From a virus, in IMG/VR virus record IMGVR_UViG_3300021185_003351, positions 1 through 64,000 of that record: a stretch of 64,000 bases of DNA; one strand, given 5' to 3'. The position numbers were made by a program, and so were the translations under genes. Each line of letters opens with the position of its first letter. The first letter of the stretch is position 1. Shown one piece after another: positions 4,055-64,000 of the stretch. The notes beneath the pieces were generated by a model that was given only the letters and a program-made list of their open reading frames with translations, was not told the DNA's origin and did no database searches.

Positions 4055-4240
4055 ATGACATCGATAGAAATATATATGAAAATTGAGGATCAATGGGATA
4101 TATTTATGGAAAATCATGTAAGATTTAATGATAAAAAAGTAAAAGCAGCAGGTGTTAGAGCAAGAAAAGCTATTGGTGAGATAAAAAAATTAGCTTCGCA
4201 ATACAGAACTGCTTGTTTAGCTGAATCAAAAGAGATATGA
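4055..4240 (+). CDS. Histone H1-like Hc1-family DNA-binding protein (Bacteroidota type)
   Basis: KAAGVRARKA...KKL...YR signature; ATATTTAT at 4024-4031. Confidence 0.75.
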   Translation: MTSIEIYMKIEDQWDIFMENHVRFNDKKVKAAGVRARKAIGEIKKLASQYRTACLAESKEI

Positions 4241-4950
4241 ACGAGTCAATATTAAGAAATATTATACGAGAACATCTATTAGAAAGCTTGTCTGAGCAAA
4301 CAATTGAAACAACATTGTTTTCACCAGAAGAAGAAAAGTTTCTTGCTACATTCACAAAGCTAGGAGCAACTAGTTTAGGCATATTATATGCTAAAAATAT
4401 GATAGGAATCCGGGAATTTCTTAATAGAAGCGGTAAGGATTTCAACTTAACGCCTCCTGTATTGAATAGTTTGCTAAGAAATAAGACAATTTCCATAGTT
4501 CCTTATGGTGGATACTCCAGAAACAATGATTATACCATTCAATTGAATATACCTTTAAAGGATTTAGAAGGAATTAAAGAACCAGAAGGCGATGATGCTG
4601 CAGGCGGTGCACCAGAACCAGCAGTAGCTGAAGAAAGTGTTCAAATATTAGCTCGAAATATAGTGTCAGAAGCAAAAAAATCAAAAAAAAAGAAAAAAAG
4701 TAAGGTTTATACCGGCAAATCAAGAACATTGAAGCGGTTACCAAGCGGATACGTAGGATATTTAGAGAAAATTATCCAAGTTTTAGGCGAAAAAGTGAAA
4801 AATGACATGGAAAAGGAGCATTTGGTTGCAGATATCCTTGATAACCTATCTCATAACTTTGGTTTAACACCTAAACAAGTATATCGTTCTTATATTTATT
4901 ATAAATCGCAAAATAGATTGGCAAATATCATCAAGGATAACAATGATTAA
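4237..4950 (+). CDS. Hypothetical protein, putative head-associated (ILRNIIREHLLE leader)
   Basis: 237 aa ORF with several L/I-x-E sites and a poly-K tract. Confidence 0.65.
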   Translation: MNESILRNIIREHLLESLSEQTIETTLFSPEEEKFLATFTKLGATSLGILYAKNMIGIREFLNRSGKDFNLTPPVLNSLLRNKTISIVPYGGYSRNNDYTIQLNIPLKDLEGIKEPEGDDAAGGAPEPAVAEESVQILARNIVSEAKKSKKKKKSKVYTGKSRTLKRLPSGYVGYLEKIIQVLGEKVKNDMEKEHLVADILDNLSHNFGLTPKQVYRSYIYYKSQNRLANIIKDNND

Positions 4951-12463: not shown

Positions 12464-13139
12464 TAGATATTGGACAAAAATAACTGAATATTCAATATCC
12501 GCATATAATAGATGTACAGATAATCAAGTATTAAAAGAACGAATTTATAGAAGATTTATATTTCCTGCTTATATGAAATTGGCAGAAAATTTAATTAATA
12601 AAATGAAATGTGATTATATCGATTCATCTTTTAAAGATTTACAAACTGATTTGGTTACTTATTTAACAATGAGGCTAGATAAATTTAATCCAGAGCACGG
12701 TAAAGCATATTCATATTATACTAGAACGTCATTTAATTATTTAATTGCAGAAAATCAAAAAGGTTATGCAAAATTGAAAAAAATGACAGAGCCAATTAAT
12801 GTTGACGAACAACGTAACGTGCAAACTGAAATGCATAATGACGAAATGAAGGAAACATTAAAAATATTCATGGATTCATATATACAATATTGTTATGACA
12901 ATATTAATTTTATTTTTTCAAATCAATCTGACATACATGTTGCTGACTCAATTCTTCATATATTTGAGAATAGAGAAAATATAGAGCAGTATAACAAAAA
13001 AGCTTTATATGTCTTTATACGTGAGCGTACGGGGCTACAAACGAATAATATAACTAGAGTTATTAAGGTTTTAAAACAAATATATTCTGAAAAGTTTCTT
13101 GAATATGAACAAACCGAATTTGTGAATTTACCCTTTTGA
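12438..13139 (+). CDS. gp55: gp55-like late-transcription sigma factor
   Basis: KLAENLI...LDKFNPEHGKAYSYYTRTSFNYLI resembles sigma region 2 of T4 gp55. Confidence 0.7.
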   Translation: MPRKKKASNRYWTKITEYSISAYNRCTDNQVLKERIYRRFIFPAYMKLAENLINKMKCDYIDSSFKDLQTDLVTYLTMRLDKFNPEHGKAYSYYTRTSFNYLIAENQKGYAKLKKMTEPINVDEQRNVQTEMHNDEMKETLKIFMDSYIQYCYDNINFIFSNQSDIHVADSILHIFENRENIEQYNKKALYVFIRERTGLQTNNITRVIKVLKQIYSEKFLEYEQTEFVNLPF

Positions 13140-13163
13140 TATTTATTATTAAAAGGTCTTATT

Positions 13164-13601
13164 ATGGATATTAAAGAAGAATTATTTAAAGGAACAAGCT
13201 TTGCTGACTTAATGTCTGATGTTTATCACAATTCAAAAAAGAAAGATAGACAAATAAATCAACTTATAGCACAATTACAGCCTCTCATAAGAAACGCATC
13301 TGATGCCACTATTATAGTACCATTAATTAAAGAATACCTAGACGTCGCAGTAAAAAATGATGATCACCTAGTAAAATTAACTGCTATTACACAACGTTAT
13401 ATTTCAACCACCCAAACTATATCTGGAGAATCATCTTTATTAAGTGATGATGAAAAACAACAATTGTTGGAGATGGCTAGTAAAGATTTCGAAGAAGAGT
13501 TATCTAATGAAATTGATGAAATCGATCAAGAAGCTAAAGAAATTAAAGAAAAAATATCAAATGTAAAATCTACTTTGGAGAATAATAATGTCATTAAATA
13601 A
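13164..13601 (+). CDS. Hypothetical helical protein (possible terminase small subunit)
   Basis: Helical, late motif at 13139-13146; function speculative. Confidence 0.35.
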   Translation: MDIKEELFKGTSFADLMSDVYHNSKKKDRQINQLIAQLQPLIRNASDATIIVPLIKEYLDVAVKNDDHLVKLTAITQRYISTTQTISGESSLLSDDEKQQLLEMASKDFEEELSNEIDEIDQEAKEIKEKISNVKSTLENNNVIK

Positions 13602-59364: not shown

Positions 59365-60426
59365 ATGGCAATAAATAAAGAAGATAAGTCGTTTAAGATT
59401 CTAATTAATAAAGAATTTACAGATCCTAGTAGAGCATTCTTTCAAGAAAATACAGTAAGTACTTTAGATATAAATGATACGGAAGTATATACTTCTCCAA
59501 TAACTTCTGACACCGCTAGTGCAATTGCATCTGGCCATGCAAAACAACATACTCAATTCATATTAACTGCAGATGGTACATATCCAAATAATGCATTTTA
59601 TTTTATATCTGGATCAGGATTTACTCCGGGTAGTGATTCTATACCTTCATTCTCATCTAATCCAGAATTATATCAAAGAAATTTTTTAAGTGATAAATAT
59701 GGTGCAAACTATGAGATAAAATTATTTGAAAATGATGGAACTCAAATATTTAAAACAGATTCAATTAATTGGATATTTGATTATAAAACAGGTATACTTC
59801 ATATAGCAGATCCAGGAGGTAAAAACACTCCATATAAAGTTAGTGTTTTACAATATACTGGTGAAACATTAAGCGGATCATTAGCTAATGAAAGAGATGG
59901 AAATATTTGGAAACAAACCGGATCTGCATATACTACTCAAAATAATATTCAAATAACTGGTTCATTAGGTGTAACTGGAGGCTTATCTGGATCATTTTCT
60001 GGTTCTGGAGCTGATCTGTCTGGCATACCAGCATCTGGTATAGTAGGCTTAGAGTTATTTAAAATACAAACAGGATCTGTTTCTACAGCTGTAAATATTG
60101 GAACAACTAATATTTTCACTGTTAATAGTGGATCAACACAATTAGTAACTTTAAATAGTGATGGAGATTTAAAAGTTTCTGGAAGCTTAACTGCAGAGTC
60201 TTATATTATATCATCATCTGTATTATATATGACTCAGTCATTTTCGTCTGGATCTACCATGTTTGGAGATACATTTGATGATACTCATATTTTTACTGGA
60301 TCTTTATTTTTTACTGGAAGTGGAACATATACATCAATGAGTCAAGCAACATACAGTGAATTTGCATATCAAGACTCTAGAGGTGGACTAAGATTTAGTC
60401 ATGTAATTGATGGAGGAGCATTTTGA
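59365..60426 (+). CDS. Virion structural/fibre protein
   Basis: WIFDYKTGIL; TGS/SGS repeats; SGSTMFGDT.DDTH.FTGS; terminal IDGGAF. Confidence 0.6.
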   Translation: MAINKEDKSFKILINKEFTDPSRAFFQENTVSTLDINDTEVYTSPITSDTASAIASGHAKQHTQFILTADGTYPNNAFYFISGSGFTPGSDSIPSFSSNPELYQRNFLSDKYGANYEIKLFENDGTQIFKTDSINWIFDYKTGILHIADPGGKNTPYKVSVLQYTGETLSGSLANERDGNIWKQTGSAYTTQNNIQITGSLGVTGGLSGSFSGSGADLSGIPASGIVGLELFKIQTGSVSTAVNIGTTNIFTVNSGSTQLVTLNSDGDLKVSGSLTAESYIISSSVLYMTQSFSSGSTMFGDTFDDTHIFTGSLFFTGSGTYTSMSQATYSEFAYQDSRGGLRFSHVIDGGAF

Positions 60427-60779
60427 GTAATATTATACAATTGCGAAGATCTCTAATAGCAGGTACTAGACCAGTCGACCTAGAAGATGGTGAATTGTCT
60501 GTTAATGTATATGACGGAAAATTATTTTTTAAACGAAATGATGGTACCACATCAATTGAAGAAATTTTTGTAACTGACTCTTGGATAACAGGATCATTAC
60601 AATTTAAACAAGAAGACACAAATAATGATATTTTACTAATACGTGAAGTAGATAACACAAGATCATTAACAGTTACATCTCAAAGTGTATTAGTAGTAAA
60701 AGAACAATCTTTAACACCAGAAGCTGCTGAAGCTGGAATCATGTATTCCGGGAGTAATTTTTGGTTAGGATTAGAATAA
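60423..60779 (+). CDS. Small fibre-associated protein (Mtd-N-like, TTG start)
   Basis: IIQLRRS..AG..P..L.DGEL.VN..DGKLFFK. Confidence 0.65.
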   Translation: MSNIIQLRRSLIAGTRPVDLEDGELSVNVYDGKLFFKRNDGTTSIEEIFVTDSWITGSLQFKQEDTNNDILLIREVDNTRSLTVTSQSVLVVKEQSLTPEAAEAGIMYSGSNFWLGLE

Positions 60780-60839: not shown

Positions 60840-62606
60840 ATGGCATCATGGAAAAAAGTCATCGTATCAGGCAGTAATGCCGATTTAGCACAAATAACAT
60901 CATCAGCTGGAATAATAACTGCAGGAGATTTAAATGTTTCTGGTAATAGTTTTCTAGGAACTAATCCTAGCGGTAGAACAGAAAGCACTGGATCATTATT
61001 TATTTCTGGAGCACTTGTATTAGATACAAATACAGGAGGCGGATCCAATGTTGGAGGGTTTACATTTGATTTAGGACCAACATCTGATGCTAGAGATGGT
61101 AGAATAATAGTTACTCCAAAACATAGATATGGCGGATTTCAATATAAAGTTTTATCTGATGCCAATTATAGTAACGAAACAGTAATTGATCTTTACTCCG
61201 CCAACGCAGGAAGAACAGGATTTCTTGCACTTTATAATCAAAACACTAAAAATATACAATTATCTGCAGATGCTCAAGGAGCTATGTTTAATACTGCAAT
61301 GGTAATTGGAACAAATCAAGCTGCAAATGCATTTATTCAAAGTAATGATCCAAATGCACCAGACAATACTAATCCTTATAAATTAGCAGTAGCTGGTAGA
61401 TTATATGTTGGTACTGCTAATGGAGAACAAGCAATTCATAATATAACAGGATCTACAAATATAACAGGATCATTAAATGTTGATGGTACATTAACAGTTA
61501 CCGGAGATACATTACAAGAAGATTTACAAACAACAGGAACTACCAAGCTTGGTAATGATATGTCTGACAAGACAGAAGTTACAGGATCTTTAAATGTTAC
61601 TGGATCTAGTTTCTTTCAAGGAAGTGGTATTTTTAGTGGGTCAGAGGCAAAAGTAACAATTGATCCATATGCTACTAATGTAATTGAAATACAAGATGCT
61701 GGCGGCGGAACAACACAAAAATTAAGATTTAGAAATGCTGTAGGCTCTGAGGAAATAGTACTTCATGGTAATGATACTGATAATAGAATATTCTTGAACG
61801 GCGGAGGCAGTACTGATGTCATGCTTAGGACAGCCAATAGCTATTTTGGAGGCAAGTTGAGTATAGGTGCCGCCTCTTACGATAACGATAATACATTATC
61901 TGTAACAGGTAATGCAAAAGTAACAACAGGTATTACTGGATCTTATTTAACTGATAATAAATTATTAACTGCCGGAAGTGTAGGACAAATTGAATCAAGT
62001 GCAATAACTTGGGATGATACCACATTAACAGTAGGATCATCAGGAGCAGGACATGTTTATGCAACTCAAGTAACTGCATCAGAAGTTAAGATATCTAGTT
62101 TAGCAGCTGACAGAATTGTATTTGTTAATTCAACTAATCAATTAGAAGATTCCGCAAATTTACAGTATGATGATGATGGCGGATTAAATGTAGGCGGAAA
62201 ATTATCTTTAACCGGTGATTTAATTGTTTCTCATAACTTAACAGTTCAAGGAACAGCATCGTTTCAAAACACAGAAGACTTAGACGTTAAAGACAGATTT
62301 ATAAGAATGGCGTCGGGTTCTACCACAACTGGAGATGGTGGATTTGCAGTACAGCAAACAGGTCCATTAGACACAGAAGGATTTGGATATGATAGTGCTT
62401 TACAAAGATGGGGAGTTACTTCATCGTTTGATGCATCACAAAATGCATTAAATCCAGCAGCATTTATGCCAATGACAATTAATGGAACAGAAAATGTACC
62501 AACCTCTAATCAAGTAGCAAATGAAACTAGATACAAAAAAGCTGGTAACATGTATATTGATACAAATGCTTCCATGGAAGAAGGCGGCGTTTGGATATAC
62601 GTATAA
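60840..62606 (+). CDS. Tail fibre-like protein
   Basis: MASWKKVIVSGS; ITGSLNV repeats; LDVKDRFI; SD AAGGAG; late motif at 60798-60805. Confidence 0.65.
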   Translation: MASWKKVIVSGSNADLAQITSSAGIITAGDLNVSGNSFLGTNPSGRTESTGSLFISGALVLDTNTGGGSNVGGFTFDLGPTSDARDGRIIVTPKHRYGGFQYKVLSDANYSNETVIDLYSANAGRTGFLALYNQNTKNIQLSADAQGAMFNTAMVIGTNQAANAFIQSNDPNAPDNTNPYKLAVAGRLYVGTANGEQAIHNITGSTNITGSLNVDGTLTVTGDTLQEDLQTTGTTKLGNDMSDKTEVTGSLNVTGSSFFQGSGIFSGSEAKVTIDPYATNVIEIQDAGGGTTQKLRFRNAVGSEEIVLHGNDTDNRIFLNGGGSTDVMLRTANSYFGGKLSIGAASYDNDNTLSVTGNAKVTTGITGSYLTDNKLLTAGSVGQIESSAITWDDTTLTVGSSGAGHVYATQVTASEVKISSLAADRIVFVNSTNQLEDSANLQYDDDGGLNVGGKLSLTGDLIVSHNLTVQGTASFQNTEDLDVKDRFIRMASGSTTTGDGGFAVQQTGPLDTEGFGYDSALQRWGVTSSFDASQNALNPAAFMPMTINGTENVPTSNQVANETRYKKAGNMYIDTNASMEEGGVWIYV

Positions 62607-62609
62607 TAA

Positions 62610-62852
62610 ATGTTAAAACAGTTACAAAAATTTATGGGATTTACAGCAAAAAATATTGATGTAAAAAATCAAGAAAAAATTAAAATTAAAAAAGCCAAAG
62701 TGCCAGAACCAACACAACCTATATCTCAATTAACTAACACAGAAATAGTATGGTTAATGGGGTTAATTAAATCTGGTACTTTTAAAGGTGAAGATGTTCA
62801 AACTGTATATGAAACAGTTGTTAAGTTACAAATCATGTTAAATCAATCATAG
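62610..62852 (+). CDS. Small hypothetical protein (possible fibre chaperone)
   Basis: 80 aa, directly after a fibre gene. Confidence 0.55.
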   Translation: MLKQLQKFMGFTAKNIDVKNQEKIKIKKAKVPEPTQPISQLTNTEIVWLMGLIKSGTFKGEDVQTVYETVVKLQIMLNQS

Positions 62853-62858
62853 TTTGTA

Positions 62859-62893
62859 TTTGATCTTAGAAAATAAATTATTATAATATTTAT
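62859..62893 (+). promoter_or_regulatory. Overlapping sigma70-like (TTTGAT-N17-TATAAT, 62859-62887) and late (ATATTTAT, 62886-62893) promoters
   Basis: Both motifs read directly. Confidence 0.65.
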
Positions 62894-62898
62894 ATTAA

Positions 62899-62960
62899 AT
62901 TGTTGTAGGCCGAAAGGAAGTAGGCATATACACGGCATAGTGTATGTATCTAACCACAAT
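62899..62960 (+). ncRNA. Candidate structured 5'-leader RNA (three-way junction with GAAA tetraloop)
   Basis: GC-richer island; P1 AUUGU/ACAAU, CC-GAAA-GG, AUAUACAC/GUGUAUGU hairpin extended by UAGG/UCUA. Confidence 0.55.
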
Positions 62961-62976
62961 AAATTAAAGGACATAT

Positions 62977-64000
62977 ATGCCAAATTGGAAAAAGGTCGTT
63001 GTATCTGGAAGTGCGGCCAATCTACATTCTTTAAACGTATCAACTGATGTCACTGCATCAAATATAAGTTCTAGCGGCAATATATTCGGAAATTTATCTG
63101 AAAACTCATCCACATCATTTAAAACAGTTGTAGTAGATCCATCTACGGGTCAATTTTATAGAACAGGTTCATATGGCACCGGCGGTGGAGGCGGAGGAGG
63201 AAGTGCATTCCCATTTACTGGAGATGCTCAAATAACAGGATCATTAATAGTATCAGGAGCATTACAATTAGATTATAATGGTAATGACAATATAATTATA
63301 GGTTCTGGTTCTGGAGAAGTATTAGACTCTGGAACAAATAATATTATATTTGGTAATAATGCAGCAACTAGTTTAACTACAGGAGGTAGCAATTTAATAA
63401 TAGGTCATAGAGCTGGAAAAAGTACAGCATTAAATCAAGAAAGTGGAAATACTCTTATAGGTATAGGTGCAGGTGAAGATGGAACTTATGATGCAAATTA
63501 TGGATCTAATACATTTATAGGATATAATGCTGGTAAAAGTTCTGCAGCAATGTATAGCACATTTGTGGGATCTGGAGTAGGACAAGGAACTACTAGTTTT
63601 AGTGTTGCCATGGGAGCAAATGGAACTTTATCCTGTACAGCTGCCCAATCTGTTGCATTAGGATATGGTAGTCAAACAAATGGTACCAATAATTACAATG
63701 TATCTCTAGGTACATCAGCTATGCGATCAGGTAATGGTGGATCTCTAAACCAATATAATGTTGCATTAGGATATCAAGCTCAATACACAAGTTATAGACT
63801 TAACAATTCTATTTCAATTGGTGCTAAAGCAGCCTATGGAACAAGTTATGCAAAAGATGATATTTTTATAGGACATGAAGCAGTTTATAGTTATGTAGGA
63901 AATACTACAGGTCGTAATCTTATCATCGGATACCAAGCGGGATATGATTTAGGAGATGCAAGTACACATAATATTTTAATTGGAGAGGGAGTAGGAGCAG
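62977..64000 (+). CDS. Tail fibre/adhesin with YadA-head-like NxxxGxxA repeats (partial, runs off the window; not in the ORF track)
   Basis: MPNWKKVVVSGS...; NIIIG, NLIIGHRAG, NTLIGIGAG, NTFIGYNAG, NVALGYQA repeats; open to the window end. Confidence 0.8.
   Translation, partial: MPNWKKVVVSGSAANLHSLNVSTDVTASNISSSGNIFGNLSENSSTSFKTVVVDPSTGQFYRTGSYGTGGGGGGGSAFPFTGDAQITGSLIVSGALQLDYNGNDNIIIGSGSGEVLDSGTNNIIFGNNAATSLTTGGSNLIIGHRAGKSTALNQESGNTLIGIGAGEDGTYDANYGSNTFIGYNAGKSSAAMYSTFVGSGVGQGTTSFSVAMGANGTLSCTAAQSVALGYGSQTNGTNNYNVSLGTSAMRSGNGGSLNQYNVALGYQAQYTSYRLNNSISIGAKAAYGTSYAKDDIFIGHEAVYSYVGNTTGRNLIIGYQAGYDLGDASTHNILIGEGVGA

Follow-up and report, generated by a model that had tools for sequence, protein, structure and literature searches.

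Introduction

Autogenous operators are structured leaders of single genes, such as the rpsO/S15 pseudoknot and three-way-junction operators, the T4 gene 32 leader pseudoknot or thrS, which lie just 5' of the initiation region or overlap it, serve as recognition sites for a protein, and are able to retain the 30S subunit or to block it; S15 sites join a junction with a G.U/G-C motif. In aquatic phages, manA, wcaG and PhotoRC-I/II were reportedly put forward by Weinberg et al. in 2010 as covariation-supported leader motifs with unknown ligands or partners. A further relevant system is the glutamine-I riboswitch (glnA RNA, RF01739), also found in aquatic phages just 5' of the start codon and built, within approximately 53-60 nucleotides (nt), from a stem P1, a hairpin, a purine-rich joiner, a second hairpin and the closing strand of P1. 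We describe here an RNA element of this same stem order and size, situated at 62899-62960 on the + strand of the first 64 kb (hereafter, the window) of the IMG/VR record IMGVR_UViG_3300021185_003351, a viral record of 172,973 bp with a guanine plus cytosine (G+C) content of 30%; DNA of the window is found again in many seawater metagenomes. The element precedes a fibre gene whose product begins with MPNWKKVVVSGS, and it is the local copy of a widespread, phage-specific three-way-junction RNA family that occurs once per genome and has apparently gone undescribed.

Architecture of the RNA element

A sequence-only reading of the window had drawn attention to 62899-62960 as a GC-richer island holding an unrecognized structured RNA. 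The island is indeed richer in G+C (41%) than the genome as a whole, and the short sequence elements listed in that reading are present: CC-GAAA-GG (62910-62917), AAG (62918-62920), UAGG (62906-62909 and 62921-62924), UCUA (62949-62952), an ACAC/GUGU hairpin (62926-62947) and AAAGGA (62966-62971). The parts of the RNA are the following:

62902-62909, + strand: 5' strand of P1, formed by GUUGU, a bulged A (62907) and GG; partner 62954-62960
62910-62917, + strand: P2 hairpin, CC-GAAA-GG, both C-G pairs invariant
62918-62920, + strand: joiner J2/3, AAG in nearly all relatives
62921-62952, + strand: P3, with U-A, A-U and G-C pairs, a 2-nt bulge (62948-62949), G.U and C-G pairs, and a variable hairpin
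62934-62939, + strand: apical loop of P3, GGCAUA, the complement of UAUGCC at 62976-62981
62953-62960, + strand: joiner J3/1 (A62953) and 3' strand of P1 (CC-ACAAU), from the comparative alignment

In P1, GUUGU (62902-62906) pairs with ACAAU (62956-62960), and GG (62908-62909) with CC (62954-62955); the register first proposed, AUUGU(U)GU/AC(C)ACAAU, lies three bases off the conserved one. Compensatory changes affect 5 of the 7 P1 pairs; GG/CC is changed to GA/UC in phages resembling the cultured Flavobacterium phage vB_FspM_immuto_3-5A (immuto). The P2 hairpin ranges across relatives from 8 to about 26 nt, a 2-bp GNRA hairpin being its shortest form, and J2/3 reads GAG in three relatives of the gene-selected sample described below. 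The first three pairs of P3 join 62921-62923 with 62950-62952, and the middle one (62922-62951) alternates between A-U (71 sequences) and G-C (45); in one locus (L476), U-A takes the place of the C-G pair of P3. What stays near-invariant is the junction, made of the GG/CC top of P1, the CC/GG base of P2 and the AAG of J2/3, together with the U-A, G-C, G.U and C-G pairs around the 2-nt bulge of P3. A G.A/A.G covariation at this bulge was also considered and failed, the R.U pair plus 2-nt bulge given by RNAalifold fitting better.

Other early suggestions have to be narrowed or abandoned. Two alternative registers of the P3 hairpin do exist in the window, but not beyond its subfamily. Most relatives have a U at the bulge position, which makes the first UAGG a feature of this lineage; a switch based on the UAGG duplication is likewise not conserved. 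The supposed echo of helix 8 of the signal recognition particle (SRP) RNA fails because the length of P2 varies freely and no SRP model matches.

Comparative evidence for structure, strand and gene linkage

The three-way junction is the minimum free energy fold of 62902-62960 on the + strand (RNAfold), although the single-sequence signal is weak and marginally better than that of shuffled sequences (z = -1.79), so that the case for an element beyond chance is made by comparison. Related loci were fetched by means of the downstream protein, and the genes among them starting with MPNWKK all had the element upstream. Two pattern scans of IMG/VR supplied a pattern-selected sample: among the matches listed, ATGCCnnnnTGGA follows 174 of 198 core matches, and the matches with ATGCCnnnnTGGA, trimmed to the motif, gave 116 distinct sequences in a MAFFT-based alignment. 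Under the three-stem model, 93.7% of the cells in these 116 sequences are paired and 331 are doubly changed; covariation scores 0.417, a value reached in 0 of 500 shuffles (0.164), while slid partners give at most 0.12. RNAalifold independently returned the same three stems.

Because the pattern scans had fixed part of the core, a second sample was drawn by the protein N-terminus alone. This gene-selected sample comprised 600 matched stretches, 460 of them encoding relatives, of which the best 80 of 460 were scored: the motif is found in 80/80 loci at 45-67 bits, ending 8-22 nt 5' of the ATG. Its 51 distinct rows are 98.1% paired and contain compensatory changes even at near-invariant pairs (GG/CC to GA/UC; C-G to U-A); this alignment was fitted to the model and leans toward the structure, a bias of which the MAFFT-based alignment of 116 sequences is free. 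The structure lies on the sense strand, since the 40 U.G pairs of P1 and the 110 G.U pairs of P3 would be mismatches on the opposite strand. The same wobble pairs, which make sense only in a sense-strand RNA, together with compensatory changes that keep pairing and not sequence, largely refute a DNA-level element such as a recombination or homing site at the boundary of the fibre cassette. We find such a site hardly credible, even though the fibre genes are highly mosaic past their conserved N-terminus of about 20 residues and, in two contigs, HNH endonuclease genes are inserted exactly at the start codon.

Distribution and novelty

The window scores 60.9 bits with model R1 and holds the single copy of its genome. 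One copy is likewise present in each of five other genomes, namely four 100% complete contigs with terminal repeats and the complete genome of the cultured phage immuto, whose copy (50.3 bits) lies upstream of an MPSWKK... gene annotated as "putative tail fiber-like protein". The carriers of the motif are large aquatic myoviruses, this cultured Flavobacterium phage among them. The immuto phages were found by protein search with the fibre N-terminus; a DNA search of GenBank phages with the window region and two relatives gave no match, the conserved blocks being too short for BLAST. In bacteria, a pattern scan of genomes, with 100 loci scored among the matches listed, gave no score above 22 bits, whereas real copies score 45-67, and in 151 Bacteroidota genomes the best matches reached 24-28 bits, both of the two inspected falling inside a phosphatase-like coding region. 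These bacterial matches are due to chance; we state that the motif was not found in the genomes sampled, and do not claim its absence from bacteria.

No Rfam 15 family reaches its gathering score in the 64-kb window, and 62700-63200 yields only noise at E <=10; no paper describing the motif was found in the literature. The window carries the core of the new family (GG/CC, CC/GG, RAG, U-R-G...C-Y-A and A) before an MP[NS]WKK gene. With Rfam silent and covariation in homologous leaders strong, the novelty anticipated by the sequence-only reading stands, and its general answer, a novel cis-regulatory RNA, is of the right kind.

Comparison with known RNAs

The likeness to the glutamine-I riboswitch goes beyond layout, since the word GGAAGUAGGC occurs in the Rfam consensus and a GUUGGCCC-like 5' half in the crystallised aptamer. 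The differences concern the parts that define that aptamer's fold and ligand site. In glnA RNA, an E-loop arises from non-canonical pairing of AGUA with GAA(G), whereas the UA of the motif forms covarying Watson-Crick pairs: U37-A73 and R38-Y72 are Watson-Crick with 45 double changes, and the 3' strand reads C-Y-A-A, the E-loop partner GAAG being missing. The 3' GAAGGAACG of glnA is likewise replaced by C-Y-A-A-CC. In the glutamine-I aptamer, the outer end of P1 has conserved C-G and G-C pairs that contact glutamine (PMC6698751), while the outer P1 pairs of the motif are variable, mostly A-U or U-A. RF01739 (gathering score 35 bits) finds no match in the window, nor at E <=10 in 62700-63200. 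With the E-loop partner, the glutamine-contacting end of P1 and the model match all missing, the motif is not a member of RF01739; the two RNAs may be distantly related or convergent. Bona fide glutamine riboswitches (61 bits with RF01739) were observed in two unrelated viral contigs, L236 (2203-2254, - strand) and L247 (9201-9251, + strand), each directly 5' of a small gene with a strong Shine-Dalgarno (SD) sequence.

These comparisons bear on whether the element might be a riboswitch of a new aptamer class, related perhaps by divergence to glutamine-I, with fibre synthesis gated by an ion or small molecule sensed within the infected cell. The near-invariant junction core amid freely variable peripheral hairpins is aptamer-like, stem order, size and the 10-mer GGAAGUAGGC are those of the Rfam glutamine consensus, and true glutamine riboswitches were caught by the same motif pattern scan; moreover, P1 is short and A/U-rich and overlaps the SD GGAG in one subgroup, and glutamine riboswitches are known from marine phages (PMC9004378). 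We nevertheless regard a riboswitch as unlikely: the genes under a riboswitch class are commonly several and related in function, while the motif goes with one gene family; the motif has neither a terminator nor a conserved alternative sequestering the SD, the best alternative in the window being 7 kcal/mol worse; the sampled bacterial genomes hold no convincing copy; and the glutamine-binding features are missing.

The autogenous operators appear to resemble the motif in kind only: in the motif the G.U/C-G pairs are only 4 bp from the junction, and no Rfam leader family matches. For mimicry of the S15 site, the L11 site, 5S rRNA or the 16S 3' end by the element, no convincing match is known. 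The phage leader motifs manA, wcaG and PhotoRC-I/II have other structures and gene contexts, and none of these Rfam families matches the window.

A proposed gene-specific leader acting at translation initiation

We favor, tentatively and at a little under an even chance, an explanation in which the element is a leader dedicated to one gene and regulates the initiation of its translation by way of a conserved partner. The leader would act in cis on the MP[NS]WKK fibre gene, most likely at translation initiation, and the near-invariant junction would be the docking site of the partner, for which a protein or the 30S subunit seems likelier than a metabolite. Since the motif accompanies one gene only, in a single copy and 7-28 nt from its start codon, a gene-specific operator is suggested over a metabolite regulon. 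An exclusive link to one gene family is usual for autogenous and other gene-specific operators, such as ribosomal-protein leaders, the T4 gene 32 and 43 operators, or the autoregulation of the P22 scaffold.

Complementarity to the start region, found in two subfamilies and on different hairpins, favors this explanation. In the subfamily of the window, the P3 loop GGCAUA may pair with the UAUGCC at the start codon and mask it; the GGCAU loop, complement of AUGCC, is kept in 56/56 sequences, position -1 is U in 52/56 of them, compared with 28/50 and 0/16 in the two remaining groups, and sequences whose P3 loop holds the start-codon complement have a longer spacer (mode 16 nt). In another subfamily, a P2 loop UGGCA or UUUGGC complements UGCCA(AA), codon 2 being CCA in 16/16. 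The pairing of loop and start codon would form a pseudoknot on top of the junction and would not compete with it. An alternative in which the 5' strand of P3, GGCAUAUA, pairs with UAUAUGCC at the start codon was rejected (-14.9 kcal/mol, against -22.1 kcal/mol for the junction fold); relatives with another stem sequence do not keep it.

Several points weigh against translational control by such a leader. Many members have plain GNRA- or UUCG-capped hairpins, so that pairing between loop and AUG is no universal mechanism and would be accessory only; a start codon and a Pro codon cannot covary, which leaves this pairing beyond the reach of covariation, and the enrichment of U at -1 is not independent evidence, the sequences of the subfamily being related. 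The short spacers may simply reflect the compaction of phage genomes, with no translational role. No candidate binding protein was identified, and the near-invariant junction looks equally like a small-molecule aptamer. A link to phage-encoded bS21 was considered and discarded, as neither immuto nor two further complete genomes with the motif have PF01165.

A broader scheme, which we hold to be rather doubtful, would combine a new phage-only class of riboswitch or ribosome-docking RNA that senses either ribosome state or a metabolite of the host, and thereby times or meters the receptor-binding fibre, with descent, perhaps, from the glutamine-I aptamer, its E-loop turned into a helix, and with a 7-nt loop, GGCAUAA, that would clamp the start codon in one subfamily. 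The last five bases of GGCAUAA match what we take to be the anticodon loop of the initiator tRNA.

Promoter, leader and fibre locus

The features surrounding the element, all on the + strand, are the following:

60840-62606, + strand: paralogous fibre gene, product beginning MASWKKVIVSGS... (MASWKKV), without the motif and with its own promoter word and AGGAG
62610-62852, + strand: small open reading frame (ORF) of 80 amino acids (aa) directly 5' of the motif
62887-62894, + strand: late-type promoter-like word TATTTATA, with a likely transcription start at about 62899
62966-62971, + strand: weak SD-like AAAGGA within the A/U-rich spacer, 6 nt past 62960
62977-64000, + strand: fibre gene MPNWKKVVVSGS..., continuing to 65442 in the genome, 821 aa

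As the sequence-only reading had held, the element lies in the 5' leader of the fibre gene, a few bases past a late-type promoter word. The word ATATTTATA occurs 38 times on the + strand and 4 on the - strand, mostly in intergenic positions 5-37 nt 5' of start codons; ATATTTATA(W)(W)AAA stands just 5 nt 5' of several start codons (+ strand, e.g., 1936, 39699, 77634, 147795), and genes that begin 5 nt past the word suggest leaderless or near-leaderless late mRNAs. From the word ending at 62894, transcription would start at about 62899, and the leader of the fibre gene is long (83 nt) because the motif lies inside it. Among 122 relatives, with P1-to-ATG spacers of 7-28 nt, a similar 8-mer ends 4-14 nt 5' of P1 in 92, and an SD-like word is present in 27. 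A subgroup with a strong GGAG has no promoter word, and in it the motif adjoins the upstream stop codon; the idea that the SD-bearing subgroup represents cyanophages was not supported, psbA not being found in five contigs that are only 30-48% complete. The suggestion that both promoter classes serve the gene did not hold: the sigma-70-like TTGATC-N16-TATAAT at 62860-62887 is a 10/12 match, and such matches are no commoner here (6) than in shuffles (5.8). No terminator-like U tract follows the motif on its 3' side.

This position raises the question of whether the RNA marks or makes an mRNA end, be it by stabilising the 5' end, by offering a site to an RNase or, as a small self-cleaving ribozyme, by freeing the fibre mRNA from a polycistronic transcript. 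The motif lies 0-12 nt from the predicted late transcription start in most loci and, in the promoter-less subgroup, right after the upstream stop codon, as such an element might; a stabiliser, on the other hand, would not need an invariant junction, and about four conserved unpaired nucleotides are few for a ribozyme core. With the hammerhead core CUGANGA...GAAA absent from 62899-62960 and no Rfam ribozyme model matching at E <=10 in 62700-63200, we judge a role in mRNA processing or stability unlikely, slightly more so than a riboswitch. Contigs from RNA libraries (X15-X18) cover the region by scattered read-sized pieces, which are uninformative on ends or cleavage.

The fibre gene at 62977 heads a run of same-strand genes of more than 14 kb, many of which match fibre, virion-structural or related PHROGs. 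A motif just past a promoter and at the head of such a run could also be a put-like processive antitermination RNA, modifying RNA polymerase for read-through of the long fibre operon, and a target as universal as RNA polymerase would explain invariance across phages of possibly varied hosts. We consider antitermination very unlikely, since it leaves the exclusive link to MP-type starts and the loop-AUG complementarity unexplained, and put RNAs have a two-hairpin architecture, unlike the motif.

The 62977 gene product matches virion structural and tail spike proteins among the PHROGs. Its conserved part is approximately the first 20 residues, MP[NS]WKK[VIL]..SGS.A.L in the window and 113 relatives; past them the fibre sequences diverge completely, which points to an extremely mosaic gene with an N-terminal anchor that stays fixed. 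Of the two WKKV-type fibre genes of the window, the one at 62977 bears the motif and the one at 60840 does not, and MA.WKK(V) paralogues in other loci also lack it. Two contigs carry an HNH homing-endonuclease-like ORF (MPNYRKLY...EIHHIDGNHNN...) whose insertion point is precisely the end of ATGCCAAATT in the fibre gene: L219, at about 4098-4700 on the reverse strand, and L060, with a shorter copy at about 12939-13230, likewise on the reverse strand. The inserted ORF captures the start codon together with the RNA motif; the fibre gene behind it restarts after a strong GGAGG overlapping the endonuclease stop codon, a natural uncoupling of motif and fibre gene.

Most of the 122 relatives have a small ORF, of about 47-104 aa, immediately 5' of the motif. 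Many of these ORFs end in a ...[FY]KGE.V..VY....KLQ..-like sequence and another type in a Lys-rich, coiled-coil-like tail, no family being recognized for either recurrent type; a protein of either type could be a partner or a chaperone. The 80-aa product in the window matched nothing in Pfam and PHROG searches and has no similarity to the product of the immuto upstream ORF. We also observed that a G-x-[WFY]-[IV]-like strand (GSNFWLGLE, GGVWIYV, DGELFIKE, NGSVWVKNK) is a frequent ending of the genes located 5' of M[AP].WKKV fibre genes, as seen in the window (60423-60779, 60840-62606, 62977 onward) and in L009, L014, L031 and L015-L025; these ends may form a split interface joining successive fibre proteins.

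Significance

If confirmed, the element would represent a new and abundant RNA family, with its linked gene on at least 460 viral contigs and the motif in all those examined, and with covariation support equal in strength to that of established Rfam families. The divergence of aptamer folds could be tested on its relation to the glutamine aptamer, and the existence of a cultured pair, Flavobacterium sp. LMO8 and phage vB_FspM_immuto, makes the family directly testable. For the biology of large aquatic myoviruses, the family would control or mark the gene that heads their host-recognition module, and would thus be a rare further case of RNA-based control of a phage structural gene.
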